Of a stretch of DNA of 64,000 nucleotides, positions 2,576-47,224 are shown in pieces; position 1 is the first letter of the stretch; each line of letters opens with the position of its first letter. The stretch is from Candidatus Magasanikiibacteriota bacterium (GTDB taxonomy: Bacteria; Patescibacteriota; Patescibacteriia; Magasanikbacterales; UBA922), in assembly GCA_003482855.1 (NCBI GenBank), contig DMXO01000004.1, positions 141,464-205,463 on the forward strand, in the 5' to 3' direction. The notes beneath the pieces were generated by a model. That model saw only the letters and a program-made list of their open reading frames with translations. It was not told where the DNA came from and ran no database searches. A program made the position numbers and the translations under genes.

Positions 2576-5287
2576 TTGTATATGCAAAAAGAATTACCAA
2601 AGGCTTACGAGCCACAACAATACGAAGACGCAATTTACAAACGCTGGGAAGATTCAGGTCTATTTAACCCAGATGTTTGTATTGAAAAAGGTGTAACTGA
2701 TAAAAAGGCGGATTATTTTTCTATTGTTCTTCCTCCTCCAAATGTTACTGGTACATTACATATTGGTCATGCGAGCATGCTTGCGATTCAGGATCTCATG
2801 ATACGCTATCATCGTATGAAAGGTGAAAGGACCCTATGGGTTCCAGGTACCGACCACGCAGCTGTCGCCACAGAATCAAAAGTAGAAAAACTTCTTATTG
2901 CAGATGAGGGTTTCAAAAAACCAAAAGAAGAATTAGGCAAGGAAAAATTTTTGGAGAGAGTAAAAGAATATGCCCAAAATTCTCATGATACGATTGTAAA
3001 CCAAAGTAAAAAAATGGGTTCAAGTTTGGATTGGAGTAGAGAGGCATACACGTTGGATGAACAAAGAAATTTGGCCGTACGGACCGTATTTAAAAAAATG
3101 TATGATGACGGATTGATTTATCGTGGGTATAGAGTTGTAAATTGGTCAGTAAAAGGCCAATCCACATGCAGTGACGACGAACTGGTCCATGTAGAAAGGC
3201 AAGGGAAAATATATACATTTAAATATTCACAAGACTTTCCTATCACGATTGCCACCACACGTCCGGAAACAAAATTGGGAGATACTGCTGTAGCGGTTCA
3301 TCCAGATGATACGCGATATCAGAAATTTATCGGGCAAACTTTTGATGTGCATAATTTTGCTGATTCAGGAGTAGATTTGAAAATAAAAATTATTGCCAAT
3401 GAGCATGTGGATATGGCATACGGTACGGGTGCAGTTGGTGTTACACCCGCGCACAGTTCTGTTGACTTTGATATGTATACGGCTCAAAAAACAAAAGGCG
3501 ATGAAATAGATCTCATACACGTAATTGGGCAGGATGGCAACATGACGTCAGCGGCTGGGACGTATGAAGGACTTACGACAGTTGAAGCACGAGAAAAAGT
3601 TGTAGAAGCTTTGAAAAAACATGATTTATTTGTGGGCGAAGAAGAAACCATTCAAAATGTCGGAACATCAGATCGTTTTGGAGATGTGGTAGAATCTATC
3701 CCGATGACGCAGTGGTTTATCAATGTAAATAAAGAGTTCCAGATGGGAGAGAGTAAGTTAAAAAATATTAAAAAAGGACAAACTGTTACATTGAAAAAAT
3801 TAATGCAAGAAGTTGTTCATTCTGGTGAAATAAAAATAATTCCTGAGAGATTTGAAAAAATATATTTTCATTGGATAGATAATTTGCGTGACTGGTGTAT
3901 AAGTCGCCAGATTTGGTATGGACATCAAATCCCTGTTTGGTACAAAAATGAAGAAAATTACTGCGGTATACATCCTCCTGAGGGGGAAGGATGGCAACAA
4001 GATCCCGACACACTCGACACTTGGTTTAGTTCAGGGTTGTGGACGTTTAGTACGCTTGGATATCCAGATTTGAATGCAGAAGATTTGAAGAATTTTCATC
4101 CAACTTCAGTCATGGAAACTGGTTATGATATTATTTTCTTTTGGGTTGCGCGCATGATTCTCATGACAACATATACCCTTGGCGATATTCCATTTAAAAC
4201 AGTGTATCTTCATGGCATGGTACGTGACGAACAGGGAAGGAAGATGAGCAAGAGTTTAGGTAATGTTATTGATCCTCTTGATACCATAAAATCGTATGGC
4301 GCAGATGCAACACGCTTGTCTTTGCTTATTGGCAACGCACCGGGGAATGATTTGAAATTGAGCGAAGAAAAAGTAGCTGGGTTTAGAAATTTTACGAATA
4401 AGCTGTGGAATATCTCCCGATTTATTATTGGTAAGATACAAGAAGACACAGGTTACAAGATACAAATAAATATTCAGAAACCAACCCCAAAAACATTAGC
4501 TGACGAATGGATTTTGGGCACGTTGAATTCCACTTTATATTTAACATCTGGTTCTATAGAGGAATTTCAATTTTCAGGAGCAGGTGATATATTAAGAACT
4601 TTTACTTGGGATCAATTAGCGGATTGGTATTTAGAAATTGCTAAAATTGAAGGAAACAAATCAGAAATTTTAAATTATATTTTAAATGGATTATTAAAAG
4701 CTTGGCATCCATTTATGCCTTTTGTCACTGAAGAAATATGGAAAGGAATACATGGTGATAATAGTTTGTTGATGGTGCAAAAATGGCCAGAATTTTTTGA
4801 AAGGACAAAAAATGACGAAAAAGTATTTGTTCAATTTAATTTAGTTAGAGATATCGTATCTGTTATTCGATTTTTGCGTTCAGAAAATAAGATTGAACCA
4901 ATTAAAAAAATAAATGTACTTGTTAGTGCAGGAGATAAAATAGATTTATTAAAAAATAATGCATCAATAATAAAGGGGCTAGCAAGGTTAGATAAATTGG
5001 TAATTCAAGAGAAGGTCGAAAAGCCCAAGACAGGAGTTGGATTTGTAGTTTCTAGTATAGAAGGTTTTATAGATTTGGAAGGCGTTGCTGACGTCGTAAA
5101 AGAAAAAGAACGCCTCACAAAAGAAATTACGCAATTAAAAGGATATGTCATAGGACTAGAAAAGAAACTTTCAAATAAAGAGTTTGTAGATAATGCTCCC
5201 AAAGCAGTGGTAGAAAAAGAAAAACGAAAATTAGAAGAGGGGACTGAAAAGTTAAAAAAGTTGGAGCAACAATTACAATCACTGTAA
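2576..5287 (+). CDS. valS: Valine--tRNA ligase
   Basis: PPPNVTGTLHIGHA and KMSKS motifs, C-terminal coiled-coil, 903 aa. Confidence 0.93.
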   Translation: MYMQKELPKAYEPQQYEDAIYKRWEDSGLFNPDVCIEKGVTDKKADYFSIVLPPPNVTGTLHIGHASMLAIQDLMIRYHRMKGERTLWVPGTDHAAVATESKVEKLLIADEGFKKPKEELGKEKFLERVKEYAQNSHDTIVNQSKKMGSSLDWSREAYTLDEQRNLAVRTVFKKMYDDGLIYRGYRVVNWSVKGQSTCSDDELVHVERQGKIYTFKYSQDFPITIATTRPETKLGDTAVAVHPDDTRYQKFIGQTFDVHNFADSGVDLKIKIIANEHVDMAYGTGAVGVTPAHSSVDFDMYTAQKTKGDEIDLIHVIGQDGNMTSAAGTYEGLTTVEAREKVVEALKKHDLFVGEEETIQNVGTSDRFGDVVESIPMTQWFINVNKEFQMGESKLKNIKKGQTVTLKKLMQEVVHSGEIKIIPERFEKIYFHWIDNLRDWCISRQIWYGHQIPVWYKNEENYCGIHPPEGEGWQQDPDTLDTWFSSGLWTFSTLGYPDLNAEDLKNFHPTSVMETGYDIIFFWVARMILMTTYTLGDIPFKTVYLHGMVRDEQGRKMSKSLGNVIDPLDTIKSYGADATRLSLLIGNAPGNDLKLSEEKVAGFRNFTNKLWNISRFIIGKIQEDTGYKIQINIQKPTPKTLADEWILGTLNSTLYLTSGSIEEFQFSGAGDILRTFTWDQLADWYLEIAKIEGNKSEILNYILNGLLKAWHPFMPFVTEEIWKGIHGDNSLLMVQKWPEFFERTKNDEKVFVQFNLVRDIVSVIRFLRSENKIEPIKKINVLVSAGDKIDLLKNNASIIKGLARLDKLVIQEKVEKPKTGVGFVVSSIEGFIDLEGVADVVKEKERLTKEITQLKGYVIGLEKKLSNKEFVDNAPKAVVEKEKRKLEEGTEKLKKLEQQLQSL

Positions 5288-7440: not shown

Positions 7441-7798
7441 TATGCAACTTGATCCACGACAATTGACTCCAGAGCAAAAAGAAATGCTTTTGAAAGATGA
7501 CAATCAAAATGACGTACCCGATATGTTGGAGCAAGGCATGTCTCTTGAAGATATAGGTATTTCAACGGGCCAGCCGTATGATCCGTCCAAGAGTGGAGCT
7601 CGACGCACACAGGCAAAAATTTTGAGTAAATTTGTAAAAGTGAGTATGTTGAAGCGATTGTTTGCCATGGGCGAGAATCCTGAACAATCACAAGAGTTTG
7701 CCAAAGAGACCACGAATGTCATGTTGCGCACATGCTTACCAATATTTTTGTTGATTGATGCTATTATCATCGCGATAATTTTATATTTTGTTTTTTAA
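7430..7798 (+). CDS. Hypothetical tail-anchored membrane protein
   Basis: 122-aa ORF, single C-terminal hydrophobic helix. Confidence 0.4.
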   Translation: MKNNMQLDPRQLTPEQKEMLLKDDNQNDVPDMLEQGMSLEDIGISTGQPYDPSKSGARRTQAKILSKFVKVSMLKRLFAMGENPEQSQEFAKETTNVMLRTCLPIFLLIDAIIIAIILYFVF

Positions 7799-9011
7799 TA
7801 ATCTGTATATGGTAGTATCTACTGACTCACAAAAAATTGAAGAAGTGCTCTCAAGATCTATTGATACGATATACCCTTCAAAAGAAGAATTTCAGAAGTT
7901 ACTTGAGTCTGGCAAACAATTAAAAATTTATGTAGGCATTGATCCTACTGCTACGTATGTTCATCTGGGACATGCGACTAATTACATTATTTTGAAACGT
8001 CTCCACACACTTGGCCACAAGATTATCGTTCTTGTTGGAGATTTCACTGCAAAGATAGGTGACCCAAGTGACAAGAGTGCTGCGCGTAGACGACTCACTG
8101 ATGAAGATGTACAAGAAAATTTGAAAACATTCAAAGCACAGATTGGGAAAATTTTGGATTTTGATGATACCAAAAATCCAATTGAGTTTAAATTCAACTC
8201 AGAGTGGCTTTCAAAACTAAATTTTGAAGATGTGTGCGATCTCGCATCACATTTTACAGTTCAGCGTATGCTTGAGCGTGATAATTTTGAAAAAAGAATA
8301 AAGGAAAATAAACCTTTGTATGTGCATGAGTTTTTTTATCCGCTTATGCAGGGATATGATTCAGTTGCTATGGATGTAGATGTAGAGCTCGGTGGCACAG
8401 ACCAGACATTCAATATGCTGGCTGGACGTACGCTTCTCAAAGATTACAAAAATAAAGAAAAAATAGTTGTTACTACGACTTTGCTTGAAAATCCGGTAAC
8501 CGGTGAAAAACTCATGAGTAAGAGTCTGGGTACTGGTATTGGTCTTGATGAAAGTCCCATAGATATGTTTGGCAAGACTATGCGTTTGCCTGATGAAGCT
8601 ATTATCCAAGTATTTATTGATTGTACCTACAAGAGCATGGGTGAGATAGAAAAAATGAAACAAGAATTGGCATTTGGTGCAAATCCGCGTGACCTCAAAA
8701 TGCGCCTTGCACATGAGATAGTGAAGACATACCATGGTGAAGAGGAGGCGCAGAAAGCTGAAGAATATTTTATCAATACATTCAAGAATAAAGAGACTCC
8801 CGATGATATAAAAGAATTGAAACCAAATTCTTATAATATTGTCTCTGTCTTGGTCGAGGCCGGTTTTGCTGTGAGCACATCAGAGGCTCGTCGTGCGATA
8901 AGTCAGGGTGGCGTCAAACTGAATGATGAAAAAGTAGAATCAATTGATGTGAACACAAAAAAGGGTGATGTGGTACAAAAAGGCAAGAGATTTTTTGTGA
9001 AGATTATATAA
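7788..9011 (+). CDS. tyrS: Tyrosine--tRNA ligase
   Basis: GIDPTA..HLGH and GDFTAKIGDPS motifs, KMSKS-type loop, C-terminal S4 domain. Confidence 0.9.
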   Translation: MFFNNLYMVVSTDSQKIEEVLSRSIDTIYPSKEEFQKLLESGKQLKIYVGIDPTATYVHLGHATNYIILKRLHTLGHKIIVLVGDFTAKIGDPSDKSAARRRLTDEDVQENLKTFKAQIGKILDFDDTKNPIEFKFNSEWLSKLNFEDVCDLASHFTVQRMLERDNFEKRIKENKPLYVHEFFYPLMQGYDSVAMDVDVELGGTDQTFNMLAGRTLLKDYKNKEKIVVTTTLLENPVTGEKLMSKSLGTGIGLDESPIDMFGKTMRLPDEAIIQVFIDCTYKSMGEIEKMKQELAFGANPRDLKMRLAHEIVKTYHGEEEAQKAEEYFINTFKNKETPDDIKELKPNSYNIVSVLVEAGFAVSTSEARRAISQGGVKLNDEKVESIDVNTKKGDVVQKGKRFFVKII

Positions 9012-9532: not shown

Positions 9533-11227
9533 ATGATGAATATTATAAAAAATGAAATTAAAAAATTATTGCATGATGTAGGCGTCGAAGGTGAGATTGA
9601 ATTATCAACTCCTCCACAGGTAGACATGGGTGATCTCGCGTTTGGGTGCTTTGGCATGGCAAAGAAATTGGGTAAAAATCCCGTCGAAGTTGCAAAGGAG
9701 ATAAAACAAAAATTCGAAATTCGAAATTCGAAATTCGAAATTCTCGACAGAGTCGAGGTATTTGGGCCGTACGTGAATTTTTATTTGAATGTGCAGGAAT
9801 TGGCGAAAATAGTTTTGGATAGTAAAAAGTATAAAGTAGAAAGTAAAAACAAAAGAGTAATAGTAGAGTTTGCGCACCCGAACACGCACAAAGCGTTTCA
9901 CATCGGACATTTGAGAAACATTACAACAGGCGAAACATTGGTGAGAATTTTAGAGCATGTTGGATATGAGGTCATACGAGCAAATTACCAGGGTGATGTA
10001 GGAATGCATATTGCAAAATCATTGTGGGGTATTGAACAGTTGAAAGATGAATATGAGCAAGTAAAAAATAAATCTCTTCATGAACGTATTGCATTTTTGG
10101 GTAAAGCGTATGCCCACGGCGGTCAGGCCTATGAAAATGACAAAAAGGTGGAAGAAGAGGTCAAAGATCTCAATAAAAAAATATATGAGCGAGATGTTTC
10201 AATTCAAGATGTATACAAAACTACACGTGCTTGGAGTTTGGAATATTTTGACCATATATACAAACGTGTTGGATCGCGTTTTGACAGATTTTATTTTGAG
10301 TCAGAAGTATATGAATCAGGAAAAAAAATTGTTCATGAATTTTTGGAAAAAGGCGTGTTTGAAGAAAGCCAAGGTGCTATAATTTTCCCCGGAAGCAGAT
10401 ATGGATTGCATGATCGAGTATTTATTACGAGCCAAGGATTTCCTGGTTATGAAGCAAAGGAAATGGCACTCGGCAGGCTTCAATTTGATGAATATCATCC
10501 AGATGAGATATTGCATGTAGTTGGCAAAGAACAAACAGGATATTTTCAAGTAGTGTTTAAAGCTCTTGAACAGACATTGCCAGAAAGCAAAGATAAAGAA
10601 CAACATGTGATATACGGCTGGGTACGTCTCAAAGAAGGTAAGATGAGTGCCAGAACTGGTAAAGTGGTTCTTGGGGAATGGTTGATTGATGAAGTTAAAA
10701 AGCAAATTTTGGATATGATGAGTGACAGGGAGCTGAGTAATAAAGATGAAGTTGCAGAAAAAATATCCATTGCAGCTGTTAAATACTCTTTTCTTAAGAC
10801 TGGCGTAGCCAATGACATTGCTTTCGATTTTGAGGAGTCAGTCTCAACTACAGGAGATAGTGGACCATATTTGCTTTATATTGTGGCGAGGATTAAATCC
10901 ATTCTAAGAAAACAAGAAACAAGAAACAATTTCCAAATAATTTCCAATTTCCAATTTCCAATTTCCAATATTGAAAAAAAATTACTCTTGCAGGTGGCAC
11001 GGTTTTCAGAAGTTGCTTTGCAGGCCGCTGAAAATATGGATCCTTCCAAAATCGCTCAGTATTTATTTTCGTTAGCACAGGATTTTAACAATTTTTATCA
11101 TGATTGTCCGGTGTTGCAGGCGGATGGAGATGTGAAGAGTTTCCGTCTATCTCTGATACAGACAACAGAACAGGTAATGACTAAGGGACTTTATTTACTT
11201 GGTATTGAGACTGTAGAGGAGATGTAA
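9533..11227 (+). CDS. argS: Arginine--tRNA ligase
   Basis: HIGH-type motif FAHPNTHKAFHIGHLRN, class I core, DALR-like C-terminal domain, 564 aa. Confidence 0.9.
   Translation: MMNIIKNEIKKLLHDVGVEGEIELSTPPQVDMGDLAFGCFGMAKKLGKNPVEVAKEIKQKFEIRNSKFEILDRVEVFGPYVNFYLNVQELAKIVLDSKKYKVESKNKRVIVEFAHPNTHKAFHIGHLRNITTGETLVRILEHVGYEVIRANYQGDVGMHIAKSLWGIEQLKDEYEQVKNKSLHERIAFLGKAYAHGGQAYENDKKVEEEVKDLNKKIYERDVSIQDVYKTTRAWSLEYFDHIYKRVGSRFDRFYFESEVYESGKKIVHEFLEKGVFEESQGAIIFPGSRYGLHDRVFITSQGFPGYEAKEMALGRLQFDEYHPDEILHVVGKEQTGYFQVVFKALEQTLPESKDKEQHVIYGWVRLKEGKMSARTGKVVLGEWLIDEVKKQILDMMSDRELSNKDEVAEKISIAAVKYSFLKTGVANDIAFDFEESVSTTGDSGPYLLYIVARIKSILRKQETRNNFQIISNFQFPISNIEKKLLLQVARFSEVALQAAENMDPSKIAQYLFSLAQDFNNFYHDCPVLQADGDVKSFRLSLIQTTEQVMTKGLYLLGIETVEEM
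9709..9743 (+). repeat. Tandem 7-bp repeat (gaaattc)x5 in-frame inside argS
   Basis: aaattcgaaattcgaaattcgaaattcgaaattc encodes KFEIRNSKFEIL. Confidence 0.9.
10911..10970 (+). repeat. Compound tandem repeat (aacaaga)x3 then (tttccaa)x5 in-frame inside argS
   Basis: Seen directly; encodes KQETRNNFQIISNFQFPISN. Confidence 0.9.
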
Positions 11228-11242
11228 AATATTTTTTGGTAT

Positions 11243-11752
11243 ATGTTTAAAAATTTTTTTGTTAGAAAAGGAAAAATGTCATTGCCAAGTTGGTTTTTTT
11301 TGAGTGTATTTTTATTATCATTTCTTGGCGCTATAAATGCGGTGTATTTGACGGTTGAACATTTCAAGCATGTAGAGACTGGTGCTGCTGTGGTATGTCA
11401 TGTCGAGATAATGGGGGATTGTAATCAAGTGTTGTATAGTAGATATTCAGAAATAGGCGCTGTGCCACTCGCACTGCTTGGCGTAGCATATTATCTGTTT
11501 GTATTTTCCGTAGCATTAATTCTCTATTTTAATAAAGAACGCTTGCTTTTTTCATTGTTGTCAGTTGTTACCTCATTTGGGTTTTTATTTAGTCTCTTAT
11601 TGGTATATTTGCAAATATGGGTATTGAGAGCAGTATGCCCTTATTGTATGTTTTCGGCATTAGTGTCGGTATTGCTGTTTGGTATAGACATTATATTTTT
11701 GGTAAAAAAGGAAAGTATAACAGGTAGGATAACTGAAGTTTTTCATCCATAA
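11243..11752 (+). CDS. Vitamin K epoxide reductase (VKOR) family membrane protein, putative disulfide-bond-forming oxidoreductase
   Basis: Loop cysteine pair (VVCHVEIMGDC) and CPYC redox motif inside predicted TM helix; about 4-5 TM. Confidence 0.55.
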   Translation: MFKNFFVRKGKMSLPSWFFLSVFLLSFLGAINAVYLTVEHFKHVETGAAVVCHVEIMGDCNQVLYSRYSEIGAVPLALLGVAYYLFVFSVALILYFNKERLLFSLLSVVTSFGFLFSLLLVYLQIWVLRAVCPYCMFSALVSVLLFGIDIIFLVKKESITGRITEVFHP

Positions 11753-11754
11753 TA

Positions 11755-12975
11755 TTGTATATGCACGAGCGTCTAAAAAATTTTTTTGCTGCAAAACCGG
11801 AATGTGTTATAGAATGGCACGATGATTATACCCCTGCAGTTGGTTGGCTTGTCATGAATTCTCTTCGCAATGGGGCTGCTGGTGGTGGCACTCGTATGCA
11901 CGAGGCATGTAGTTTCTCTGAAGTGGATCAATTGGCAAAGACAATGGAAATAAAATTTACCGTCTCTGGCCCAGCAATTGGTGGGGCAAAATCAGGTATT
12001 AGGTATGCATTTAAGAGCGAGAAAGATAAACAAGATGTACTTAGGCGTTGGTTTTTGTATATTCAAAAAGAGTTGAAAACGCATTATGGTACAGGTGGTG
12101 ACCAGAATGTTGATTTTAAATCAGACGTGACGCCTTTGTTGTTGGAATTGGGTATTCGGCATCCTCAAGAGGGAATTGTGCACGGGTTGTACCCTCATTT
12201 ATCTGTGTCAGAACGTGATGCCATTATTGATAATCTTCGTCAGGGTATTCTTGCACCCGTTATGTCAGATAGTTTTTTGCATAATTTGGATTTTAGAATA
12301 GCAGATTCAGCTACAGGCTACGGTGTTGTTTCTGCCATCAGTGCTTATTATGATCTACGTGGCGAGTCGTTGCAGGGCAAAAAAATTATTATAGAAGGTT
12401 TTGGAAATGTAGGTTCAGCTGCTGCATATTACGCGTGGAGAAAAGGGGCTTATATTGTTGGTGTCATTGATAAAGATTGGTATATGTTTGATGATGCTGG
12501 TATAGATATAGGTGATTTACTCAAAGCGCGCGTGTCCGGAAGAATACACACAGACGTGCCTTCTCTCAAATCGTATACAGGATCGCTTGATTTTTATCCT
12601 CATGCCGATGTGTTTGTTCCTGCTGCTACATCACATACCGTTCACCGAGATAGATTGAAATGTCTGAAGGATAGTGGCATTGCAATTATTGCTTCGGGTG
12701 CCAATAACCCCTTTATTGATAGCGAGACAGAGGAAGTGGCTGATAATCAAGTAAGTGTTATACCAGAATTTATTGTGAATTGTGGTATGGCAAGATGTTT
12801 TGCATATTTTATGCAGCCAAATGTAACTACGGGCGAAAAGGCCATTTTGCATGATATAGATGTATGTATTGAAAAGGCTGTGACAAATCTTTTTTCTCAA
12901 AATAATTCTCTATCTCATCTTACCAGTACTGCGTTTGATATTGCATTAGATGCTATAGAAAGTCCGAGCTTGTAA
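11755..12975 (+). CDS. Glu/Leu/Phe/Val dehydrogenase family protein
   Basis: GGGTRMH...GGAKSG catalytic-lysine glycine-rich region; GFGNVGSAAAYY NAD(P) Rossmann motif. Confidence 0.7.
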   Translation: MYMHERLKNFFAAKPECVIEWHDDYTPAVGWLVMNSLRNGAAGGGTRMHEACSFSEVDQLAKTMEIKFTVSGPAIGGAKSGIRYAFKSEKDKQDVLRRWFLYIQKELKTHYGTGGDQNVDFKSDVTPLLLELGIRHPQEGIVHGLYPHLSVSERDAIIDNLRQGILAPVMSDSFLHNLDFRIADSATGYGVVSAISAYYDLRGESLQGKKIIIEGFGNVGSAAAYYAWRKGAYIVGVIDKDWYMFDDAGIDIGDLLKARVSGRIHTDVPSLKSYTGSLDFYPHADVFVPAATSHTVHRDRLKCLKDSGIAIIASGANNPFIDSETEEVADNQVSVIPEFIVNCGMARCFAYFMQPNVTTGEKAILHDIDVCIEKAVTNLFSQNNSLSHLTSTAFDIALDAIESPSL

Positions 12976-12985
12976 TACACCACGT

Positions 12986-14500
12986 ATGTCTATAACAAAA
13001 AATTATTCTGCTATGCGCGCTTTGCATTCTTTTTATCATAGGAAATCAGACGTATGGCGTCACCGTGCAGAGAGACATGTCTTGCATTTATTTCATAAAG
13101 CTGCGGACGGAGTAGTTGCATACAGAGATTTTTTAGGGAAGAACGGTGTCGATCATCACAAAGTCAATGATTGGTCTGATTTTCAGCATGTCCCTGTGAT
13201 TGATAAAAAGAATTATCTGCGACAATATGAGTTGAAAGATCTGTGTTGGAATGGGTCTTTTGATAAGACACTTGTTTTTACTTCTACATCAGGTTCTACA
13301 GGCGAACCTTTTTATTTTCCTCGATCAGAAGAATTAGATTGGCAATCTTCTATTTTTCATGAAGCCTTTCTTCGGTATGGCAATACAAAGGACAAAGGTC
13401 CAACACTGATACTCGTGGCTTTTGGTATGGGAGTATGGATAGGTGGTCTTTTGACATACAAGGCGTTCGAGATGTGCGGACACAGAAGTGCATATCCAAT
13501 TTCTATATTGACACCCGGCATAAATAAGAAAGAAATTTTTAATGCACTAAAAAATGTCTCACCTTTATATAAGCAGACAATTATTGTTGGCTACCCACCT
13601 TTTGTAAAAGATGTATTAGACGAGGCATCTGCACAAGGAATTGAATTGGAAAAGATGAATGTCCGTTTTGTCTTTGCTGCTGAAACATTTACCGAAGGTT
13701 TTAGAGATTATTTGGCACGAAAAGCTCGTGTAGATAATATATATCGTGATGTTTTCCATGTGTATGGCAGTGCAGATTTGGGTACGATGGCTGTGGAGAT
13801 GCCATTGAGTATTTTGATCAAACGTCTAGCTCTCAAACATGAACATTTGTCTATTGATTTATTTCATGACATTTCCAAGGTCCCCACGTTGGCACAATTT
13901 AATCCAGAATTTACTCATTTTGATGCTGTTCAAGACGAACTCGTGCTGACAGGTAATAATGTATTACCTCTTATTCGTTATGGAATTGGAGATCGAGGTG
14001 GTGTTTTTGATTTTGATTTTGTCAAACAAAAATTTTTTGATAATGGTCTTGATCTCACTGAAGAAGCAAAGAAAGTAGGTGTACTTGATTGTCTATTTCA
14101 ATTGCCTTTTGTATATGTATATGAAAGAGTCGATTTTGCTACGACACTATATGGAATCACGATCTACCCTCAATATATCAAAGAGGCATTGCTTGATAAA
14201 GATTTTGACAATTTATTGACGGGTAAATTTGTGTTGTCTACTGAATTTGATGAGATGCATAATCAGTATCTCAAGATACACTTAGAGTTACAGAAAGGTA
14301 TTGATTCATCATGTGTCAATGACAGTATCAAACATAAAGTGCTTGAGCAGATTATTGGTTATTTATCTCTCAAGGTCTCAGAGTTTAGAGAGTTGAAGAG
14401 CCATTTGGGTGAACGGGCACATCCACAATTAAAGTTTTGGGAAGCAGAACATCCAACCTATTTTAAACCAGGGGTAAAACAAGCGTGGGTTAAAAAATAA
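12986..14500 (+). CDS. Adenylate-forming enzyme, phenylacetate-CoA ligase / GH3 / F390-synthetase-like
   Basis: TSTSGSTGEPFYFP phosphate-binding loop typical of PaaK-like/GH3 adenylating enzymes; 504 aa. Confidence 0.5.
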   Translation: MSITKNYSAMRALHSFYHRKSDVWRHRAERHVLHLFHKAADGVVAYRDFLGKNGVDHHKVNDWSDFQHVPVIDKKNYLRQYELKDLCWNGSFDKTLVFTSTSGSTGEPFYFPRSEELDWQSSIFHEAFLRYGNTKDKGPTLILVAFGMGVWIGGLLTYKAFEMCGHRSAYPISILTPGINKKEIFNALKNVSPLYKQTIIVGYPPFVKDVLDEASAQGIELEKMNVRFVFAAETFTEGFRDYLARKARVDNIYRDVFHVYGSADLGTMAVEMPLSILIKRLALKHEHLSIDLFHDISKVPTLAQFNPEFTHFDAVQDELVLTGNNVLPLIRYGIGDRGGVFDFDFVKQKFFDNGLDLTEEAKKVGVLDCLFQLPFVYVYERVDFATTLYGITIYPQYIKEALLDKDFDNLLTGKFVLSTEFDEMHNQYLKIHLELQKGIDSSCVNDSIKHKVLEQIIGYLSLKVSEFRELKSHLGERAHPQLKFWEAEHPTYFKPGVKQAWVKK

Positions 14501-14506
14501 TATAGT

Positions 14507-15646
14507 ATGGAAAAACCAATTTTGTTTGATCCAGAACAGGGGTCAATTGAAGACTTTAAAAAGACACATGGTGTCGAACAGATTTTTGATACGTTTGAGT
14601 CACAGCTCAGAGAGCTATATTTGATTCGGAACCCTCGTTTTCGTTTTAGTCCATACACAGAAGGGGAGTGGCAAGATTTTTTGCACGAGTATCTCAGTGG
14701 AGAGGTTATGGAACAAAAAGGTTTTTGGTTTTATTTCCCTTGGAATAAAAATTTTGTTCACTATTTACCAGAAGATGAACATCTTGAAGTAAGAACAGCC
14801 CGGAATAGAAATATCATTACTTCATCTGAGCAAGATATATTGTATAATTCTACATTGGCTTTTTTGGGGTTGAGCGTAGGTAGCCATGCAGTTTTGACGT
14901 TGGTGATGATGGGCATAGGCAAGAGGATATATATCGCAGATCCCGACACTATTTCAGCATCAAATCTGAACAGAATCCGCGCAGATGTTGCTGATATAGG
15001 ATTGAATAAATGTGATTTTATTTTAAGAAAAATATACCAGATAAACCCTTATTTAGAAATAATGGCGTATCGAGAGGGCGCCCATAAAGATAATCTGGTC
15101 GCGTTTTTAAATGAACCATCGCGGGCACAAATTTTGATAGAAGAAGTTGATAATCTGGAAATCAAGATACGATCTCGCTTGGCTGCACGAGCGTGTGGCA
15201 TGCCTGTTGTGATGGCTACTGACAATGGGGACAATGTCATTGTGGATGTAGAACGGTATGATATAGATAATGATTTGGAATTATTTAATGGGGCAATTGG
15301 TCCAGTTACTATTGAAGAATTTGAAAAATTTTCTCCGCATGAGTTGCCGCGTCTTGCAACCAAAATTGCTGGTCCTCGTCTGATAACAGGTAGGATGCAA
15401 GATTCTTTGCTCGAAGTAGGAAAAACTATTTATTCGTGGCCACAGATGGGCAATGCTGCAACATTGGCAGGTGTCGCTCTTTCGTATCTTGTAAAACGGA
15501 TTTTGTTGGGTGGATCTGCACCTTCGGGGAAATATGAAGTCAACCTCGATGCAATTTTTGATCCGGGATACCATACATCTTATGGTACTGAACAAAGAGA
15601 CATTCAATTAAATAATTTTTTAAAGACCATTAATTTGGATGTTTAA
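14507..15646 (+). CDS. ThiF/MoeB/HesA (E1-like) family adenylyltransferase with N-terminal extension
   Basis: GLSVGSHAVLTLVMMGIG...DPDTISASNLNRI nucleotide-binding motif. Confidence 0.7.
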   Translation: MEKPILFDPEQGSIEDFKKTHGVEQIFDTFESQLRELYLIRNPRFRFSPYTEGEWQDFLHEYLSGEVMEQKGFWFYFPWNKNFVHYLPEDEHLEVRTARNRNIITSSEQDILYNSTLAFLGLSVGSHAVLTLVMMGIGKRIYIADPDTISASNLNRIRADVADIGLNKCDFILRKIYQINPYLEIMAYREGAHKDNLVAFLNEPSRAQILIEEVDNLEIKIRSRLAARACGMPVVMATDNGDNVIVDVERYDIDNDLELFNGAIGPVTIEEFEKFSPHELPRLATKIAGPRLITGRMQDSLLEVGKTIYSWPQMGNAATLAGVALSYLVKRILLGGSAPSGKYEVNLDAIFDPGYHTSYGTEQRDIQLNNFLKTINLDV

Positions 15647-16712
15647 TTTAGCATATATGAAACAGATTATATTGGATATTTTGAAGGCAGGAGTGCGTGC
15701 CCCATCAGGAGATAATTCTCAACCATGGCGTTTCGAAATAAAAGATAATGTGATTTTCATATATAATCTACCTGAAAAAGACAACCCAATTTTTAATTAC
15801 AAACAACGAGGCTCACATATTGCGCACGGTGCTTTGATTGAAAATATCGTCATAGCCGCCACAGAAAAAGGGTATAAGGCACTAGTGGTTTTGTTTCCTC
15901 ATGGTGCAGAGTCAGATTGTGTCGCGCAAGTGACATTGGAACAAACACTCGTAGTCAAAGATCCTCTTTTTTCTTTTATTTTTACACGGGCAATTAACCG
16001 GAAGCCTTACCGCCAAGTTCTTCTTTCATCTGAACAGAAAAACAGTATTTTTGAAACCACGAAAGAAATTGGAAGTGGTCGTATCATATTGGTCGATGAT
16101 ATGAATGCAGTAAAAAAATTGGGCAAGGATTTTTCTATCAACGAAATTGTTATGTTAGAGAATAGGGATTTACATAATTATTTTTTTAGTGATGTACGGT
16201 GGACAGATGAAGAAGAGCAAAGAGAAAAGACAGGTTTATATGCAAAGACTATGGAATTGAAGCCACCGCAGTTGGCTGTGTTTAAACTGCTGAGTCACTG
16301 GAGGATAAATACATTGTTATGTAAGTTGGGAATTGCACGATTTATCGCCAAAGAAAATGCCAAGGGCTATGGAACGGGAACGATTGGTGCTATAATAATG
16401 GAGGATGAGTCACCAGAATCATATATACGCGCAGGTAGAATAATGCAACGCGTGTGGTTGAAGGCAGCACAAATGCATTTTGGGTTTCACCCTATTACGG
16501 GAGTTGTATATATGATGATGCGTATTCGGGATAATAGAAATGAAGTTTTATCTGATGTACATGTGAATTTATTGCGTAAAGCGTATCACGATATAGAAGC
16601 ACAATTAGGTATCACATCAGGTGAACTTACTATTACATTTAGAATTGGTGATGGGGGCGAACCAAGTGGCTACTCTTCACGATTGGAACCCCGTGTTGAA
16701 TATATAACATAA
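15639..16712 (+). CDS. Nitroreductase-family (SagB/McbC-like, two-lobed) oxidoreductase
   Basis: RAPSGDNSQPWRFEI N-terminal nitroreductase signature; 357 aa suggests duplicated fold; overlaps upstream gene by 8 bp. Confidence 0.6.
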   Translation: MFNLAYMKQIILDILKAGVRAPSGDNSQPWRFEIKDNVIFIYNLPEKDNPIFNYKQRGSHIAHGALIENIVIAATEKGYKALVVLFPHGAESDCVAQVTLEQTLVVKDPLFSFIFTRAINRKPYRQVLLSSEQKNSIFETTKEIGSGRIILVDDMNAVKKLGKDFSINEIVMLENRDLHNYFFSDVRWTDEEEQREKTGLYAKTMELKPPQLAVFKLLSHWRINTLLCKLGIARFIAKENAKGYGTGTIGAIIMEDESPESYIRAGRIMQRVWLKAAQMHFGFHPITGVVYMMMRIRDNRNEVLSDVHVNLLRKAYHDIEAQLGITSGELTITFRIGDGGEPSGYSSRLEPRVEYIT

Positions 16713-16726
16713 GTATATATTAAGGT

Positions 16727-18358
16727 ATGGATTTATTTACCAATCTCGATTTATTTTCAGTAGGCATTACGACAGCAGCGATAGGCATTTTGGCCTTTGC
16801 TGTTTTTTTTAATGACCACAAAAGTACTACCAACCAAGCTTTTTTGTTTTTTGCTCTCATTACAGTTATGTGGGGATGGGTCAACTATGCAAGCTATCAG
16901 GTATATTCTCCATTCATGACATTGTGGTTGAATCGTTTGGCTATCTTTTTTGCGACATGGCATGCATTTGGTATTTTTCAATTTTTTTATGTGTATCCCC
17001 AAGAAGCATACCAGTTTAATAAATTGTATAAATTTGTGTTAGTGCCTCTTGCGTCTGTGACATCATGCATTGTCCTGACTCCTTTAGCCTTGGGAGAAGT
17101 GACCAAGTACATGGCCGACGGTCGTGCCGAAGAAATATCCAATGGTCCCGGAATGGCTTTGTTTGGGGCGACAGTATTTGGTTTTATCATTGCGGCTATA
17201 GTTATTCTTTTTCGAAAGATTTGGAAGGCAGATGCACACCAGAAAATACAGTTGCGTCTCATCTTAATTGGCACTATCTTCACGTTTGCTTTACTCCTAA
17301 CTTTTAATTTTGTTTTACCAGCAGTATTTGGGTTGCCTCGATTTATTCCGTTGGGGATGGTATGGATTTTACCTTTTATCTTTCTTAGTTCATATGCGAT
17401 TATTAGACATGGACTGTTAAATACACGAGTGATTGGGACTGAATTGTTGACTTTTGCGTTACTTATTGTTTCTTTTATCGAGGTAGCTATTACCAAAGAC
17501 ATTGTTAGTTTATTTTTTAGGATAGGGGTGTTTGTCTTGATATTTTTCTTTAGTATACTTTTAATTAGGGGTGTTCGTAATGAAGTAAAACAACGTGAAC
17601 AGCTTGGTCAGTTAGCCCACTCACTTGAGAAAGCAAATTTACGCCTCAAAGAACTTGACCAACAAAAGACAGAATTTCTCTCTATTGCATCTCATCAACT
17701 TCGTACCCCACTTTCTATTATCAAGGGATATATTGAACTTATCGAAGACGGTGCGTATGGCAAGGCGACGAAAAAAATGAAAGACGTACTCCACGACATG
17801 GATGAAAGTAATGAGCGTCTAGTTAAATTGGTTGATGAATTTTTGGATATTACGCGTATAGAGCAAGGGAGAACTAAGTTTGTGTTTGAAAACTATAAGA
17901 TTAATGATCTTATCTCTGATGTGGTGAAAGAATTGCACCAAAGAGCTGAGGGTAAAGGGTTGAAAATTATGTGGGAACCAAATGCAGATATCGCGGATGT
18001 TTGTATGGATGAAGAAAAAGTTCGTCATGTAGTATTCAATTTTATTGATAATGCTATCAAATATAGTGATAAGGGAATTATCAAAGTTCTGGTTGAAAGA
18101 GAAGATGGCGGAATCACGGTACGTGTAAAAGACCGTGGTTTTGGGTTTAACCCTATTGATCAGGCAAATTTTTTCCAGAAATTTTATCGTGGTGAAAATG
18201 TAAAAGGTACTAATGTCAATGGTACAGGACTTGGTATTTATGTGTGTCGTAAATTCATCGAATCACATGAAGGTCATGTCTGGGCTCATAGTGAAGGACT
18301 TGGCAAGGGGAGTGAATTTGGTTTTTGGATACCAGGCAAGAAGCCGGCGACTTCCTAA
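16727..18358 (+). CDS. Sensor histidine kinase with polytopic N-terminal membrane domain
   Basis: About 7 TM helices, coiled-coil, H-box SHQLRTPL, HATPase_c G-boxes (GTGLGIYVCRKF). Confidence 0.85.
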   Translation: MDLFTNLDLFSVGITTAAIGILAFAVFFNDHKSTTNQAFLFFALITVMWGWVNYASYQVYSPFMTLWLNRLAIFFATWHAFGIFQFFYVYPQEAYQFNKLYKFVLVPLASVTSCIVLTPLALGEVTKYMADGRAEEISNGPGMALFGATVFGFIIAAIVILFRKIWKADAHQKIQLRLILIGTIFTFALLLTFNFVLPAVFGLPRFIPLGMVWILPFIFLSSYAIIRHGLLNTRVIGTELLTFALLIVSFIEVAITKDIVSLFFRIGVFVLIFFFSILLIRGVRNEVKQREQLGQLAHSLEKANLRLKELDQQKTEFLSIASHQLRTPLSIIKGYIELIEDGAYGKATKKMKDVLHDMDESNERLVKLVDEFLDITRIEQGRTKFVFENYKINDLISDVVKELHQRAEGKGLKIMWEPNADIADVCMDEEKVRHVVFNFIDNAIKYSDKGIIKVLVEREDGGITVRVKDRGFGFNPIDQANFFQKFYRGENVKGTNVNGTGLGIYVCRKFIESHEGHVWAHSEGLGKGSEFGFWIPGKKPATS

Positions 18359-19706: not shown

Positions 19707-19788
19707 GCCCAGGTGGCGAAATTGGTATACGCACTACCTTGAGGTGGTAGCGGGGAAACTCATGCGGGTTCAAATCCCGCCCTGGGCA
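19707..19788 (+). tRNA. tRNA-Leu (anticodon GAG), type II with long variable arm
   Basis: Manual fold: acceptor GCCCAGG/CCTGGGC, anticodon loop TTGAGGT, T-loop GGTTCAAATCC; CCA not encoded. Confidence 0.85.
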
Positions 19789-19844: not shown

Positions 19845-20232
19845 GGTTCATTTTATGGAAGATGATCGCTCCGACGTCACGTCGGAGAGGAAAGTCCGAA
19901 CTCTAATTCGCTGATGAGGCGAAGAAAGGTAGTGGATAACGTCCACCCCTCGAGCTGTGAAGTTTCGGGGCGGGAAAGCGCCACAGAGACAATACTACCC
20001 TGACGTAACGTTGGGGGAAAGGTGAAAAGTGTATAGAAGTTTTTGATCTCGAGTCAAAAGTTACTATACTCTCCGTTCCGTGAGGAATTGGAGTGGCAAG
20101 CCCTACCTGGAGAAAGAGCAGCGCGCCGATGAGGCTGCGAAAAGTTAGCTCGTTTGATCACGTAGAGTAATTTACGTGGCAGAGAAATGATCATCCTCGA
20201 CAAAATTCGGCTTATATCCATAGAATGAATTT
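19845..20232 (+). ncRNA. rnpB: RNase P RNA (bacterial type)
   Basis: Conserved blocks GAGGAAAGTCCGAAC (CR-I/P4), GGGAAAGGTGAAAAG (CR-II-like), ACAAAATTCGGCTTATA (CR-V); P1 pairing of 5' GGTTCATTTTATGG with 3' CCATAGAATGAATT; boundaries approximate. Confidence 0.8.
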
Positions 20233-28237: not shown

Positions 28238-28273
28238 CTTTTCGTATCAAAATTAATATTTTAGTTTGTTTGT

Positions 28274-46428: not shown

Positions 46429-46524
46429 TAAAATAAAAAATCCTAAACTCTAAATCCTAAACCCTCCATGTTCGGGTCTAGGACAAATTCAAATTACGTA
46501 ATTCCAAATGCTTAAAACACAATA

Positions 46525-46552
46525 TAAAAAACTACCTATATGGTAGTTTTTT
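46525..46552 (+). terminator. Rho-independent terminator after giant gene
   Basis: aaaaaactacctatatggtagtttttt. Confidence 0.7.
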
Positions 46553-46557
46553 ATATT

Positions 46558-46588
46558 CCTGTACACATAAGTATTTGTGTACACAGGG
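46558..46588. repeat. Imperfect inverted repeat at boundary of GC-rich island
   Basis: cctgtacacataagtatttgtgtacacaggg. Confidence 0.6.
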
Positions 46589-46657
46589 ATTCTGCTCGCG
46601 GGCGCGCATGACTATGAGCTTCATCCCCCTCGATTGCCCCCGAGGATAGGGTGCCCG

Positions 46658-47176: not shown

Positions 47177-47224
47177 GGGTACCTCCTATGCCGCGCCCCG
47201 AGCCATCGGGGCGGTCGAAACGGT

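Follow-up and report, generated by a model that had tools for sequence, protein, structure and literature searches.

The region described here can tentatively be read as a Patescibacteria-wide five-gene module for biosynthesis and sensing, which is organised around a split oxazolone synthetase, follows a CoA-independent route and has a dedicated sensor kinase. We assign this reading a probability of about 0.45. Its four enzymes constitute one co-conserved system and not a set of unrelated housekeeping genes, as judged from 80 related loci and natural gene fusions. The initial annotation could not name a pathway for them. The ThiF-like and nitroreductase-like proteins, however, correspond to a split form of TrzS/Rv1355c, with TyzB plus TyzC and OxzB as relatives, and the substrates of these enzymes are N-acyl amino acids, not peptides. 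A description of an oxazolone system linked to a ligase, an ELFV dehydrogenase and a kinase was not found in the searchable literature.

Gene layout and conservation

The window, i.e., the whole analysed stretch of 64 kb, contains all six open reading frames that had been listed, each on the + strand. They are predicted to encode a VKOR-family membrane thiol oxidoreductase (11243..11752; Pfam VKOR, 5.7e-27), an ELFV-family amino-acid dehydrogenase (11755..12975; Pfam ELFV_dehydrog and ELFV_dehydrog_N), a PaaK-family adenylate-forming ligase of the ANL superfamily (12986..14500; AF2 fold and invariant motifs), a ThiF-like ATP-dependent cyclase (14507..15646; NCBIfam Rv1355c family), a 357-aa flavin-dependent oxidase (FDO/Acg type) of the nitroreductase superfamily (15639..16712; NCBIfam PRK14851, Rv1355c family and Acg), and a 7TM sensor histidine kinase (16727..18358; Pfam HisKA, HATPase_c and HisKA_7TM). 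The intergenic spacings from VKOR to kinase are about 2, 10, 6, -8 and 14 bp. Since almost all genes of the window lie closely spaced on the + strand, close packing by itself is weak evidence. Consensus promoter and terminator scans revealed no excess of sites over shuffled sequence.

The locus comparison comprises the best 80 ligase loci from species-level genomes. The module is defined by the ligase, its most conserved gene, whose family forms 766 50%-identity clusters at E<=1e-30 and has relatives in at least 266 Patescibacteria species genomes (GTDB). Downstream partners were counted in the 51 loci with at least 5 kb of downstream sequence, upstream partners in 70 loci. The ThiF gene adjoins the ligase in 50 of the 51 loci, the 7TM kinase is found in 44, and the oxidase (NTR) is found in 43 and is missing from about 15%. 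Immediately upstream of the ligase, ELFV occurs in 33 of the 70 loci, and about half of the loci are without it. Flanking genes vary among lineages, and the inner gene order is permuted while the outer synteny stays unchanged. Fusions join ELFV to the ligase (P0251, P0330) and ThiF to the ligase (P0258, P0339, P0330), the latter in both ligase-ThiF and ThiF-ligase order; a three-part fusion ELFV-ligase-ThiF exists as well. Some of the fusions in this and the following sections are known from one metagenomic gene call only, and an assembly or frameshift error could have produced them. It is the co-occurrence across 80 species-level genomes, together with the permuted order inside a conserved outer synteny and the natural fusions, that speaks for more than a chance arrangement.

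A split oxazolone synthetase

By sequence comparison, the ThiF protein corresponds to the N-terminal half of TrzS/Rv1355c, extension included, and the oxidase to its C-terminal half and also to TyzC. TrzS combines a ThiF-like ATP-dependent cyclase with a flavin-dependent oxidase and converts N-acyl amino acids to oxazolones (PMC12856293); biochemistry has been published for TrzS (PMC12856293), TyzBC (PMC10404671) and OxzB (bioRxiv 10.1101/2020.06.11.147165).

The ThiF protein matches the NCBIfam Rv1355c family with 2.8e-82 and 277 bits over model positions 27-341 of 722, while the runner-up ThiF model reaches only 70 bits. Aligned with residues 47-340 of an Rv1355c-family protein from Rhodococcus, it shows 34% identity. 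The N-terminal extension, first put at approximately 110 aa, is real at approximately 100 aa, because the Pfam ThiF domain begins at residue 99. The protein retains the residues that serve adenylation in E. coli ThiF, and G121, G125, D145, D147, N153, N155, R156, K168, D215 and K220 are invariant among 68 homologues. The protein is neither MoeB nor the ThiF of cofactor synthesis.

For the oxidase, the best-scoring model is NCBIfam PRK14851, a ThiF-NTR fusion (1.3e-59, 202 bits), ahead of the Rv1355c family (6.2e-47, 160 bits, model positions 373-712) and the Acg family (1.6e-36, 126 bits); Acg is also the closest solved structure. SagB-type models gave no match in the NCBIfam profile search. 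With residues 376-646 of the same Rhodococcus protein the oxidase shares 21% identity, in an alignment collinear with that of ThiF, and the Rv1355c-model matches of the two genes form complementary halves. All 60 homologues compared have the APSxxNxQPW motif, G64 and R117 of the oxidase, and 58 of them also have R121. In other CPR genomes, ThiF-oxidase fusions (L022, L034) match the TrzS/Rv1355c model over positions 23-712 of 722 with 443-451 bits. As the best of these scores, 451 bits, lies slightly under the curated Rv1355c equivalog cutoff of 476, the fused CPR proteins are placed in a sister subfamily and may act on a different substrate from TrzS.

The ligase and the dehydrogenase

The ligase has no Pfam match and reaches 44 bits on the PaaK equivalog, whose cutoff is 646. 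Whether it belongs to the PaaK or the GH3 clade was decided by fold in favour of PaaK: its AF2 model (pLDDT 86) finds PaaK1 (2y27) as top Foldseek match (E 3e-21, TM 0.77, 15% identity), followed by others such as BT_0428, NatL2, AjiA1 and ClxA, and GH3 first appears at rank 44. Invariant motifs are TSGSTGEP, YGSADxG, RYxxGDxGG and a C-terminal Lys. With the CoA-dependent (PaaK1/2) and CoA-independent (NatL2, AjiA1 and ClxA of benzoxazole biosynthesis) PaaK-family ligases it shares the fold (TM 0.66-0.78, normalised to the target) and the ANL adenylation motifs, but it is only 13-17% identical to them, about 75 residues longer, and located outside paa catabolic and benzoxazole (amidohydrolase) contexts. 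The classical products of PaaK enzymes are CoA thioesters, which counts against an amide-forming role of the ligase. NatL2, AjiA1 and ClxA need no CoA to join an adenylated aryl acid with a second small molecule. Among the 80 loci, no acyltransferase family shows enrichment, an OxzA/TyzA-type acyltransferase is absent at the module, and neither YcaO nor an acyltransferase occurs within about 10 kb on either side of it. The lack of enrichment and the PaaK-family fold near NatL2, AjiA1 and ClxA led us to propose the ligase as the candidate N-acylating step.

The ELFV gene probably starts at the ATG at 11761, since Met3 is almost invariant among homologues. Its product scores 83 bits on the best GDH equivalog (cutoff 536), and its AF2 model (pLDDT 93) resembles GDH in fold (TM about 0.7, identity about 21%). 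The catalytic residues, Lys79 and Asp116, do not vary, and the binders of the gamma-carboxylate in GDH are replaced, GPYKGG by an invariant GAAGGG and Ser by Phe349. Two ELFV clades, mutually only 22% identical, fill the same slot beside the ligase, and both lack the GDH specificity residues or resemble Leu/Trp/Phe dehydrogenases. Judged on these residues, the enzyme is not a glutamate dehydrogenase but a member of an uncharacterised clade. The housekeeping pair that the initial annotation had named as a counter-case, bona fide glutamate dehydrogenase plus MoeB, is thus not what is found here: the dehydrogenase is without glutamate-binding residues and the ThiF protein is of another type.

Sensor kinase and VKOR

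The kinase had been taken for an orphan at the flank. It indeed has no adjacent response regulator, and none is encoded anywhere within the 64-kb window; its co-occurrence in 44/51 loci nevertheless makes it part of the module. Motifs of its sensor domain are conserved across lineages, and among the loci retrieved with this domain as seed and having upstream sequence, three out of four carry the module directly upstream. A receiver-only response regulator stands beside the module in 14 of the 51 loci. The linkage would fit just as well if the kinase simply regulated transcription of the operon in response to another cue.

The VKOR protein shows its loop Cys pair (VVCHVEIMGDC) and the active site CPYC. 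Its association with the module is not general: VKOR is found upstream in just 3 of 70 related loci, but two metagenomic proteins (P0121, P0138) carry it fused to the window-type ELFV. On this basis, it is a lineage-specific accessory outside the module core.

Proposed pathway

In the proposed route, ELFV would convert an amino acid, hydrophobic or aromatic, into its 2-oxo acid or the reverse and thus supply one substrate. The PaaK-family ligase would adenylate a carboxylic acid and hand the acyl group directly to the amine of an amino acid, so that an N-acyl amino acid would arise without CoA and the ligase would stand in for the acyl-CoA N-acyltransferase (OxzA/TyzA/TrzA). ThiF would then adenylate the carboxylate of the N-acyl amino acid and cyclise it to a 5(4H)-oxazolone, and the oxidase would desaturate C-alpha to C-beta. 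The 7TM kinase may sense the product or a related cue, or regulate the pathway in some other way. Known FDOs require O2 and many CPR bacteria are thought to be anaerobic, which counts against the oxazolone model. So do the loci that lack ELFV or the oxidase, an ELFV step that is ambiguous in direction and role, the sister-subfamily standing of the fused CPR proteins and the missing response regulator of the window.

Comparison with known systems

Among the closest known systems is TrzAS (Rv1356c/Rv1355c), the N-acyl tryptazolone pathway of Mycobacterium and Rhodococcus (Kleetz et al., JBC 2025, PMC12856293). Both systems pair a nitroreductase-superfamily FDO with a ThiF-like cyclase that bears the same extension at its N-terminus, the window gene pair is collinear with the fused TrzS protein, and the adenylation Asp equivalent to TrzS D217 is conserved in the module ThiF. 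Some CPR relatives are even fused exactly like TrzS and align with the family model from one end to the other. In contrast, the window genes are split, the fused CPR forms score slightly under the curated family cutoff, and TrzA is absent, with the PaaK-family ligase and ELFV linked instead. Where TrzAS has c-di-GMP genes as neighbours, the module has a dedicated 7TM histidine kinase, in some loci together with a response regulator; the host of TrzAS is a mycolic-acid actinobacterium, that of the module a member of the CPR.

TyzACB (Rv2336-Rv2338c), the N-acyl tyrazolone pathway (Grigg et al., JBC 2023, PMC10404671), is split as well, with adjacent ThiF (TyzB) and FDO (TyzC) genes in one operon. 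The window oxidase can be likened to its FDO, a two-lobed monomer about 340-370 aa in length. On the TrzS-type model the window ThiF scores 277 bits, far above its <=70 bits on other ThiF models, and the acyl-CoA-dependent acyltransferase TyzA is missing from the module. The oxazolone synthetase OxzAB of Pseudoalteromonas rubra (de Rond, Asay and Moore; bioRxiv 10.1101/2020.06.11.147165) shares the combination of ThiF and nitroreductase, by which OxzB makes oxazolones from N-acyl amino acids; the best match of the window oxidase is to the fusion model PRK14851 (202 bits). OxzB, however, is fused, in most genomes it comes with the N-acyltransferase OxzA, and ligase, dehydrogenase or kinase partners are not described for it.

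Alternative explanations

On the classical CoA route, the ligase would form an aryl- or acyl-CoA, an N-acyltransferase encoded elsewhere would use it, and ThiF and the oxidase would make the same oxazolone, which would leave nothing new in the role of the ligase. The ligase fold is indeed nearest to the true phenylacetate-CoA ligases PaaK1 and PaaK2 and to BT_0428, and all characterised oxazolone systems use acyl-CoA. We still consider this route unlikely: acyltransferases are not enriched at the 80 loci, the ELFV-ligase-ThiF and ligase-ThiF fusions suggest direct product hand-over, and the ligase shares only 15% identity with PaaK and scores 44 bits where the cutoff is 646. To our knowledge, many CPR genomes are without CoA and fatty-acid biosynthesis, which also counts against it. 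A catabolic or stress module without a dedicated product is improbable. ELFV and ligase would degrade amino acids via 2-oxo acid and aryl-acetate to the CoA ester, with the Acg-like flavoprotein and ThiF in kinase-controlled redox-stress or flavin handling. Mycobacterial Acg-family proteins belong to a stress and dormancy regulon, Acg is the nearest structure to the oxidase, and ELFV plus PaaK may resemble amino-acid and phenylacetate catabolism. Other paa or catabolic genes are not linked in the 80 loci, though, and the decarboxylation from 2-oxo acid to aryl-acetate is without an enzyme. Catabolism also leaves the tightest pair, ligase and ThiF with their fusions, unexplained, and the oxidase ranks the ThiF-fused FDOs (PRK14851, 202 bits; Rv1355c, 160) above Acg (126).

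The initial annotation was reminded of TOMM/microcin B17 machinery. An E1-like adenylating enzyme that forms an azole-type heterocycle with a flavoprotein comes mechanistically close; the TOMM machinery itself does not hold, since YcaO, a match to a SagB model and a conserved precursor ORF (80 loci) are all missing, the first and last as already noted there. The same absences make it quite doubtful that ThiF adenylates a peptide or protein C-terminus encoded elsewhere, RiPP-like or E1-like, with ligase and flavoprotein elaborating it. Peptide C-termini are indeed targets of ThiF-family enzymes (MccB, PaaA), MccB is a weak PDB match to the window ThiF, and a radical-SAM/SPASM gene occurs near the module in 5/80 loci. 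Against this stand intra-module gaps of about -8 to 15 bp, the lack of conserved small ORFs in or beside the module in the 80 loci (the seeming exceptions trace to an RNase P RNA artefact), the absence of a ThiS/MoaD/ubiquitin-like gene, and the 277 bits of ThiF on the TrzS model versus <=70 on other ThiF models. Hardly credible, finally, is a tRNA or nucleoside modification in which a TcdA-like ThiF cyclises an N-acyl or N-carbamoyl amino-acid moiety, as in ct6A. It would explain the nearby aaRS genes (ValRS, TyrRS and ArgRS upstream in the window; TrpRS or AspRS downstream in other loci), and TcdA is among the weak ThiF matches. The TcdA model, however, scores 29.5 bits against 277 for Rv1355c, the aaRS neighbours vary by lineage and look like housekeeping synteny, and it is not obvious what tRNA modification would need a membrane sensor kinase or an amino-acid dehydrogenase for.

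Biological meaning

If the kinase of the proposed oxazolone module senses the product, the module would represent a pair of signal synthase and receptor. In Vibrio, the small-molecule synthase genes of CqsA/CqsS and LuxM/LuxN likewise adjoin a polytopic-membrane sensor kinase without a large extracellular domain; the likeness would lie in gene arrangement alone, as the sequences are unrelated. The Trz authors independently remark that oxazolones resemble signalling molecules (PMC12856293). An ultra-small CPR/Patescibacteria bacterium may thus make and sense a small signalling molecule, using a recently discovered type of ring-forming enzyme, the oxazolone synthetase, together with two unexpected helper enzymes, the ligase and ELFV.

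Organisation of the gene cluster

Six ORFs are tightly packed on the + strand of the window at 11243-18358, just where the initial annotation had placed them. A VKOR protein (11243-11752, 169 aa) is followed by an ELFV-family dehydrogenase (11755-12975, 406 aa), a PaaK-like protein without Pfam match (12986-14500, 504 aa), a ThiF-family protein in which residue 99 marks the start of the canonical ThiF domain (14507-15646, 379 aa), a nitroreductase-family protein (15639-16712, 357 aa), referred to below as the oxidase, and a histidine kinase that combines an N-terminal 7TM region with HisKA and HATPase_c (16727-18358, 543 aa). From gene to gene the gaps measure 2, 10, 6, -8 and 14 bp, the negative value denoting an overlap of 8 bp between the ThiF and oxidase genes. 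For the dehydrogenase, the ATG at 11761 is the probable start codon, since Met3 is nearly invariant among its homologues; only 2-8 bp separate this gene from the VKOR gene.

The window belongs to a low-GC genome (about 38%), and almost all of its genes lie on the same strand. Without exception, the best relatives of the window are Patescibacteria/CPR, with Magasanikbacteria-like ones closest. Scans for consensus promoters and terminators returned sites no more numerous than in shuffled sequence and are silent on operon limits. As tight spacing is also normal in such genomes, the case for a functional unit must rest on cross-genome comparison.

Conservation of the module in Patescibacteria

The ligase alignment was scanned against one genome per GTDB species. 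Relatives were found in at least 266 genomes, and the best 80 loci were compared. By title, all of these are Patescibacteria, unclassified bacteria or MAGs that are evidently mislabelled, and the many lineages comprise Wolfe-, Lipton-, Harrison-, Brenner-, Magasanik-, Roizman- and Woesebacteria, Paceibacteria and others; the Wolfebacteria locus L019 is from a complete genome (CP011209). Genes were counted by profile searches that allow for contig truncation, using the 51 loci with at least 5 kb of downstream sequence and the 70 loci with at least 1.5 kb upstream. ThiF is present in 50 of the 51 loci, the 7TM kinase in 44, the oxidase in 43 and a receiver-only response regulator in 14. An ELFV dehydrogenase lies directly upstream of the ligase in 33 of the 70 loci, and VKOR is found upstream in three. 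Unbiased clustering of all neighbouring ORFs revealed no further enriched enzyme family and no acyltransferase. The remaining neighbours represent variable housekeeping synteny (aminoacyl-tRNA synthetase genes, DnaK/DnaJ/GrpE, release factor, ribosomal proteins, aldolase), and the flanks of the module vary by lineage. Within the lineage of the window itself the outer synteny from ArgRS to bactofilin and DAGK is kept and the inner order is permuted, e.g., to ELFV-oxidase-ThiF-ligase-kinase in the related locus L087.

Natural fusions link every enzyme. Metagenomic proteins join ELFV and ligase (P0251), ligase and ThiF in either order (P0258, ligase-ThiF; P0339, ThiF-ligase) and all three as ELFV-ligase-ThiF (P0330), and further fusions unite ThiF with the oxidase (loci L022 and L034) and VKOR with ELFV. 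Distance correlations between the module proteins lack a housekeeping control and were set aside as evidence.

Taken together, the ELFV dehydrogenase, ligase, ThiF protein, oxidase and kinase very probably form a conserved five-gene module. The initial annotation had read the four enzymes as one system, an idea at odds with either a lack of co-conservation or an identity as genuine housekeeping enzymes; it stands because the genes are co-conserved and the enzymes are not of that kind. It had further regarded VKOR and the kinase as flanking genes. This holds for VKOR, which is a lineage-specific accessory; the kinase, by its frequency, is a member of the module.

Some loci show additional features. 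One module variant has an extra ORF of 310 aa between ThiF and kinase (L086, 13357-14289), which contains the SAM-methyltransferase-like motif ILDIGCGG and could provide a tailoring step. Radical-SAM/SPASM-type ORFs occur a few kb from the module in five of the 80 loci (L006 with two copies, L012, L025, L027 and L062), and L062 carries two tandem ligase-ThiF pairs.

Surroundings of the module in the window

A tRNA (19707-19788, +) and the RNase P RNA (19850-20230, +) lie just downstream of the module. In the distant CPR loci L011, L015, L017, L049, L052 and L056, both strands are conserved at the same downstream position, about 6-9 kb from the ligase, which suggests that several lineages share this synteny of RNase P RNA and module. 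Small ORFs in these stretches were considered as peptides and rejected, as conservation extends to both strands and the position coincides with the RNase P RNA.

Four aminoacyl-tRNA synthetase genes are found in the window, ValRS (2576-5287), TyrRS (7788-9011), ArgRS (9533-11227) and AspRS (48318-50084), and among the 80 related loci the downstream flank of the module holds TrpRS in 16 and AspRS in 12. They probably reflect housekeeping synteny rather than a functional link. Two large ORFs at 25652-30349 (+), which follow a glycosyltransferase gene block and whose sole recognised domains are DUF4012 (861 aa) and DUF11 (691 aa), probably encode cell-surface proteins. A giant ORF of 3,091 aa (37153-46428, +) has no Pfam match at E<=1e-3. 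It is followed by a GC-rich patch at about 46500-48285 (0.48 vs a background of about 0.38), in which ORFs overlap in several frames. The patch includes a very GC-rich 42-bp tandem repeat of 2.2 copies (46981-47072) and, just upstream of AspRS, an ORF with a weak match to IS200-like Y1 transposases (47554-48285), and it may be a foreign or mobile insertion.

The ThiF protein and the oxidase are related to oxazolone synthetases

The NCBIfam model "Rv1355c family" (722 positions) describes the family of TrzS (Rv1355c), a fused ThiF-oxidase oxazolone synthetase. The ThiF protein of the window matches the N-terminal half of this model (positions 27-341) with 277 bits (E 2.8e-82), and the next-best ThiF model of NCBIfam reaches 70 bits. 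The oxidase matches the C-terminal half of the same model (positions 373-712, 160 bits, E 6.2e-47); its other NCBIfam matches are PRK14851, a ThiF-nitroreductase fusion model (202 bits, E 1.3e-59), and the Acg family (126 bits). An annotated Rv1355c-family protein of Rhodococcus aligns with the window ThiF protein at 34% identity (residues 47-340, E 8e-53), including the N-terminal extension, and, collinear with this, with the oxidase at 21% identity (residues 376-646, E 2e-18). The natural ThiF-oxidase fusions of L022 and L034, both from Magasanikbacteria genomes, cover positions 23-712 of the TrzS model with 451 and 443 bits. The curated cutoff of 476 bits is reached neither by these fusions nor by the two halves in the window (277 and 160 bits), and thus a sister subfamily rather than an equivalog is indicated.

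In an alignment with E. coli ThiF, the window protein keeps the Gly loop, the ADxD and SNLxR motifs, the Lys and the Asp of the DN motif. The Asp equivalent to D127 of E. coli ThiF and D217 of TrzS is present, so that the ATP-binding and adenylation residues are intact, and the adenylation residues are invariant across 68 CPR homologues. In the oxidase, APSxxNxQPW, G64 and R117 are invariant among 60 homologues and R121 is found in 58 of them. Judged by these sequence features, the two proteins represent a sister subfamily of the oxazolone synthetases in split form and not SagB/McbC-YcaO machinery. Oxazolone-type chemistry is the favoured prediction for the pair, with a probability of roughly 0.55-0.6.

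The founding oxazolone synthetase is OxzB of Pseudoalteromonas (bioRxiv 10.1101/2020.06.11.147165), and TyzB and TyzC form a split version (PMC10404671). TrzS converts N-acyl-tryptophan to an N-acyl tryptazolone, an oxazolone, by ATP-dependent cyclisation and subsequent O2-dependent desaturation (PMC12856293). Oxazolones are labile compounds that acid hydrolyses and that are open to alcoholysis (PMC12856293). Every known oxazolone synthetase receives its N-acyl amino acid substrate from an acyl-CoA/ACP-dependent N-acyltransferase (PMC12856293; PMC10404671; bioRxiv 10.1101/2020.06.11.147165). The module shares with OxzB, TyzB+TyzC and TrzS the ThiF adenylation residues and the adjacent oxidase but lacks their adjacent N-acyltransferase: no protein of the OxzA/TyzA/TrzA type is encoded within about 10 kb in the window, and no such family is enriched in the 80 loci.

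A more remote relative is found on a Kitasatospora plasmid (NZ_CP108248; L095, 7137-10021). The C-terminal 350 aa of this 616-aa 'ThiF family adenylyltransferase' are 35% identical to the window ThiF protein, N-terminal extension included. It carries an extra, unassigned N-terminal domain of about 250 aa and adjoins a KAS III gene, which may represent another route that feeds an acyl group to this ThiF clade.

Ligase and dehydrogenase

The ligase family retains the ANL adenylation motifs. When 1.84 billion representative proteins were searched with its profile, 766 clusters were found at E<=1e-30; the family has no Pfam model. The AF2 model of the window protein (pLDDT 86) is closest to PaaK1/2 by Foldseek (E about 1e-21 to 3e-21, target-normalised TM 0.77, about 15% identity), with BT_0428 also near. 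The PaaK-family enzymes NatL2, AjiA1 and ClxA come next, and GH3 enzymes first appear at rank 44, which decides between the two clades considered in the initial annotation in favour of PaaK. The protein shares fold and ANL motifs with phenylacetate-CoA ligase but neither its equivalog-level score (44 bits vs a cutoff of 646) nor its context, as no paa catabolic genes are found in the module neighbourhoods. The structural model thus places the ligase in the PaaK clade, yet distant from PaaK itself. NatL2-type PaaK-family enzymes are a precedent for CoA-independent coupling, and we tentatively consider the ligase as a CoA-independent N-acylating enzyme, an assignment that we hold slightly less probable than its opposite.

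The dehydrogenase has Pfam ELFV matches and a predicted glutamate dehydrogenase-like fold (pLDDT 93, TM about 0.7, about 21% identity). Its catalytic residues K79 and D116 are invariant, as are G215/G217 of the Rossmann GxGxxG motif, and G220 of that motif is found in 116 of 121 homologues. In contrast to glutamate dehydrogenase, the Lys and Ser of the gamma-carboxylate site are replaced: GPYKGG reads GAAGGG, invariant in the 121 homologues, and the Ser corresponds to Phe349. The best glutamate dehydrogenase model gives 83 bits against a cutoff of 536, and the protein is not a genuine glutamate dehydrogenase. Its clade is common to Flavobacteriia, where the context of a homologue is unrelated and offers no substrate clue. 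In most related CPR loci the same slot is occupied by another ELFV clade, 22% identical to that of the window, which matches leucine and tryptophan dehydrogenases with similar scores. The match of this commoner clade to the model of the tryptophan dehydrogenase ScyB had suggested a link to tryptazolone, but among solved structures leucine dehydrogenase scores slightly higher than tryptophan dehydrogenase, so that no substrate can be assigned. Two divergent clades in one position rather indicate that the conserved need is a neutral or hydrophobic amino-acid dehydrogenase and not a particular enzyme.

VKOR, a membrane thiol-quinone oxidoreductase, has an intact loop Cys pair and CPYC site. Two independent metagenomic proteins (P0121 and P0138, 565 and 569 aa) are in-frame fusions of VKOR with an ELFV dehydrogenase of the window type, and the observation also includes L086 8001-9710. 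Such a fusion could serve as a membrane tether or in redox coupling of the pathway.

The 7TM histidine kinase

The kinase is assigned by Pfam (HisKA, E 4.8e-18; HATPase_c, E 1.1e-23), and motifs of its 7TM sensor domain are conserved between lineages. It departs from a common two-component system in that no cognate response regulator gene adjoins it or occurs anywhere in the 64-kb window; a receiver-only regulator accompanies the kinase in 14 of the 51 related loci, e.g., L003 and L092. Searches with the sensor yielded three loci in a metagenome scan with a 6-sequence alignment and six proteins in a word-indexed homologue search. In the reciprocal direction, the module lies directly upstream in three of only four informative kinase-seeded loci with upstream sequence. 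That the kinase senses the pathway product is conceivable, though on balance we would rather doubt it.

A candidate pathway and its alternatives

Combining these assignments, the ELFV dehydrogenase would interconvert an amino acid and its 2-oxo acid and so supply substrate. The ligase would adenylate a carboxylic acid and then acylate the amine of the amino acid without CoA. ThiF would adenylate the carboxylate of the N-acyl amino acid, leading to closure of the oxazolone ring, and the oxidase would introduce a double bond between C-alpha and C-beta. The kinase may detect the product or regulate the pathway. As an N-acyltransferase is absent and an adenylate-forming ligase is most tightly coupled to ThiF, fusions included, this five-step reading is the most economical one, and the domain order of the triple fusion agrees with the proposed order of steps.

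The pairing of an E1-like protein with a nitroreductase had initially been likened to TOMM/microcin B17 machinery, and a RiPP-like or E1-like system for peptide modification was considered here as well. YcaO was found neither in the cluster or its flanks nor among the enriched neighbour families of the 80 loci. The 357-aa protein, suspected to be SagB-like, matches no SagB-type NCBIfam model at E<=0.01, only the ThiF-nitroreductase fusion models and the Acg family, and by sequence Acg (2YMV) is the nearest protein of solved structure. With intergenic gaps of about 15 bp at most there is no space for a precursor gene. The small ORFs of the region that are rich in Cys, Ser and Thr all lie out of frame inside genes, and the 80 loci hold no conserved small intergenic ORF beyond the stretches 6-9 kb downstream. 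None of the three TOMM components, YcaO, SagB/McbC dehydrogenase and nearby precursor, was found, and the comparison is not supported. A sulfur-carrier or ubiquitin-like E1 was also rejected: ThiF and MoeB models give 34-55 bits against cutoffs of 152-377, and the module and its borders contain no ORF for a ThiS, MoaD or ubiquitin-like partner. PADLOC matches to the ThiF fold are weak and of the generic E1-E2 type, so that a defence system of the CBASS or ubiquitin-like kind was discarded as an explanation.

Three other explanations were weighed. The ligase might be a classical CoA ligase that works with a remote acyltransferase, which would retain the acyl donor of the known oxazolone systems. 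The genes might form a catabolic or stress module, or else a TcdA-like tRNA modification system built around the ThiF protein. None of these, nor peptide modification, explains the ligase-ThiF fusions together with the affinity to the TrzS family as well as the five-step pathway does.

Implications

CPR bacteria have minimal genomes, from which the biosynthesis of CoA and fatty acids is commonly missing, and they are not known for a metabolism based on either. One may speculate on a self-contained chemical signalling system of Patescibacteria, in which an oxazolone or N-acyl dehydroamino-acid autoinducer is made from scavenged amino acids alone, by a CoA-independent PaaK-type amide ligase and a split oxazolone synthetase, and is detected by the cognate 7TM kinase. 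We regard this full scenario as improbable. If true, the diverged versions of enzymes and kinase would represent different signal 'dialects'. The authors of the Trz study pointed out a resemblance between oxazolones and signalling molecules and the position of trzAS beside c-di-GMP genes (PMC12856293). A GGDEF gene likewise adjoins the Rv1355c-family copy on a Rhodococcus plasmid.

The core enzymology belongs to a known, very recently characterised family; the discovery of oxazolone synthetases dates from as recently as 2021-2025, and a role in signalling or stress is their authors' speculation. Three aspects appear to be new: the replacement of the acyltransferase by a PaaK-family ligase and an ELFV dehydrogenase as partners, the systematic linkage of an oxazolone-synthetase-type pair to a 7TM sensor kinase, and the wide conservation of the module in Patescibacteria. 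Full-text searches yielded no paper in which ThiF and nitroreductase occur together with PaaK or together with Patescibacteria, and the term oxazolone is absent from the top-ranked CPR papers. The three oxazolone studies (PMC12856293; PMC10404671; bioRxiv 10.1101/2020.06.11.147165) contain no mention of CPR, a ligase partner or a kinase.

The sister version described here is conserved in hundreds of CPR species, whose genomes retain very few biosynthetic genes. A PaaK-family ligase invariably goes with it, and usually so does a membrane sensor kinase of its own. These ties suggest that the oxazolone pathway is supplied in a new and apparently CoA-independent manner, and they are the first genomic argument that links oxazolone-type products to a sensor. 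The PaaK-like family and the conserved ELFV clade common to Flavobacteriia gain a functional context. For Patescibacteria, whose host interactions are poorly understood, the module represents one of few conserved candidate small-molecule pathways.
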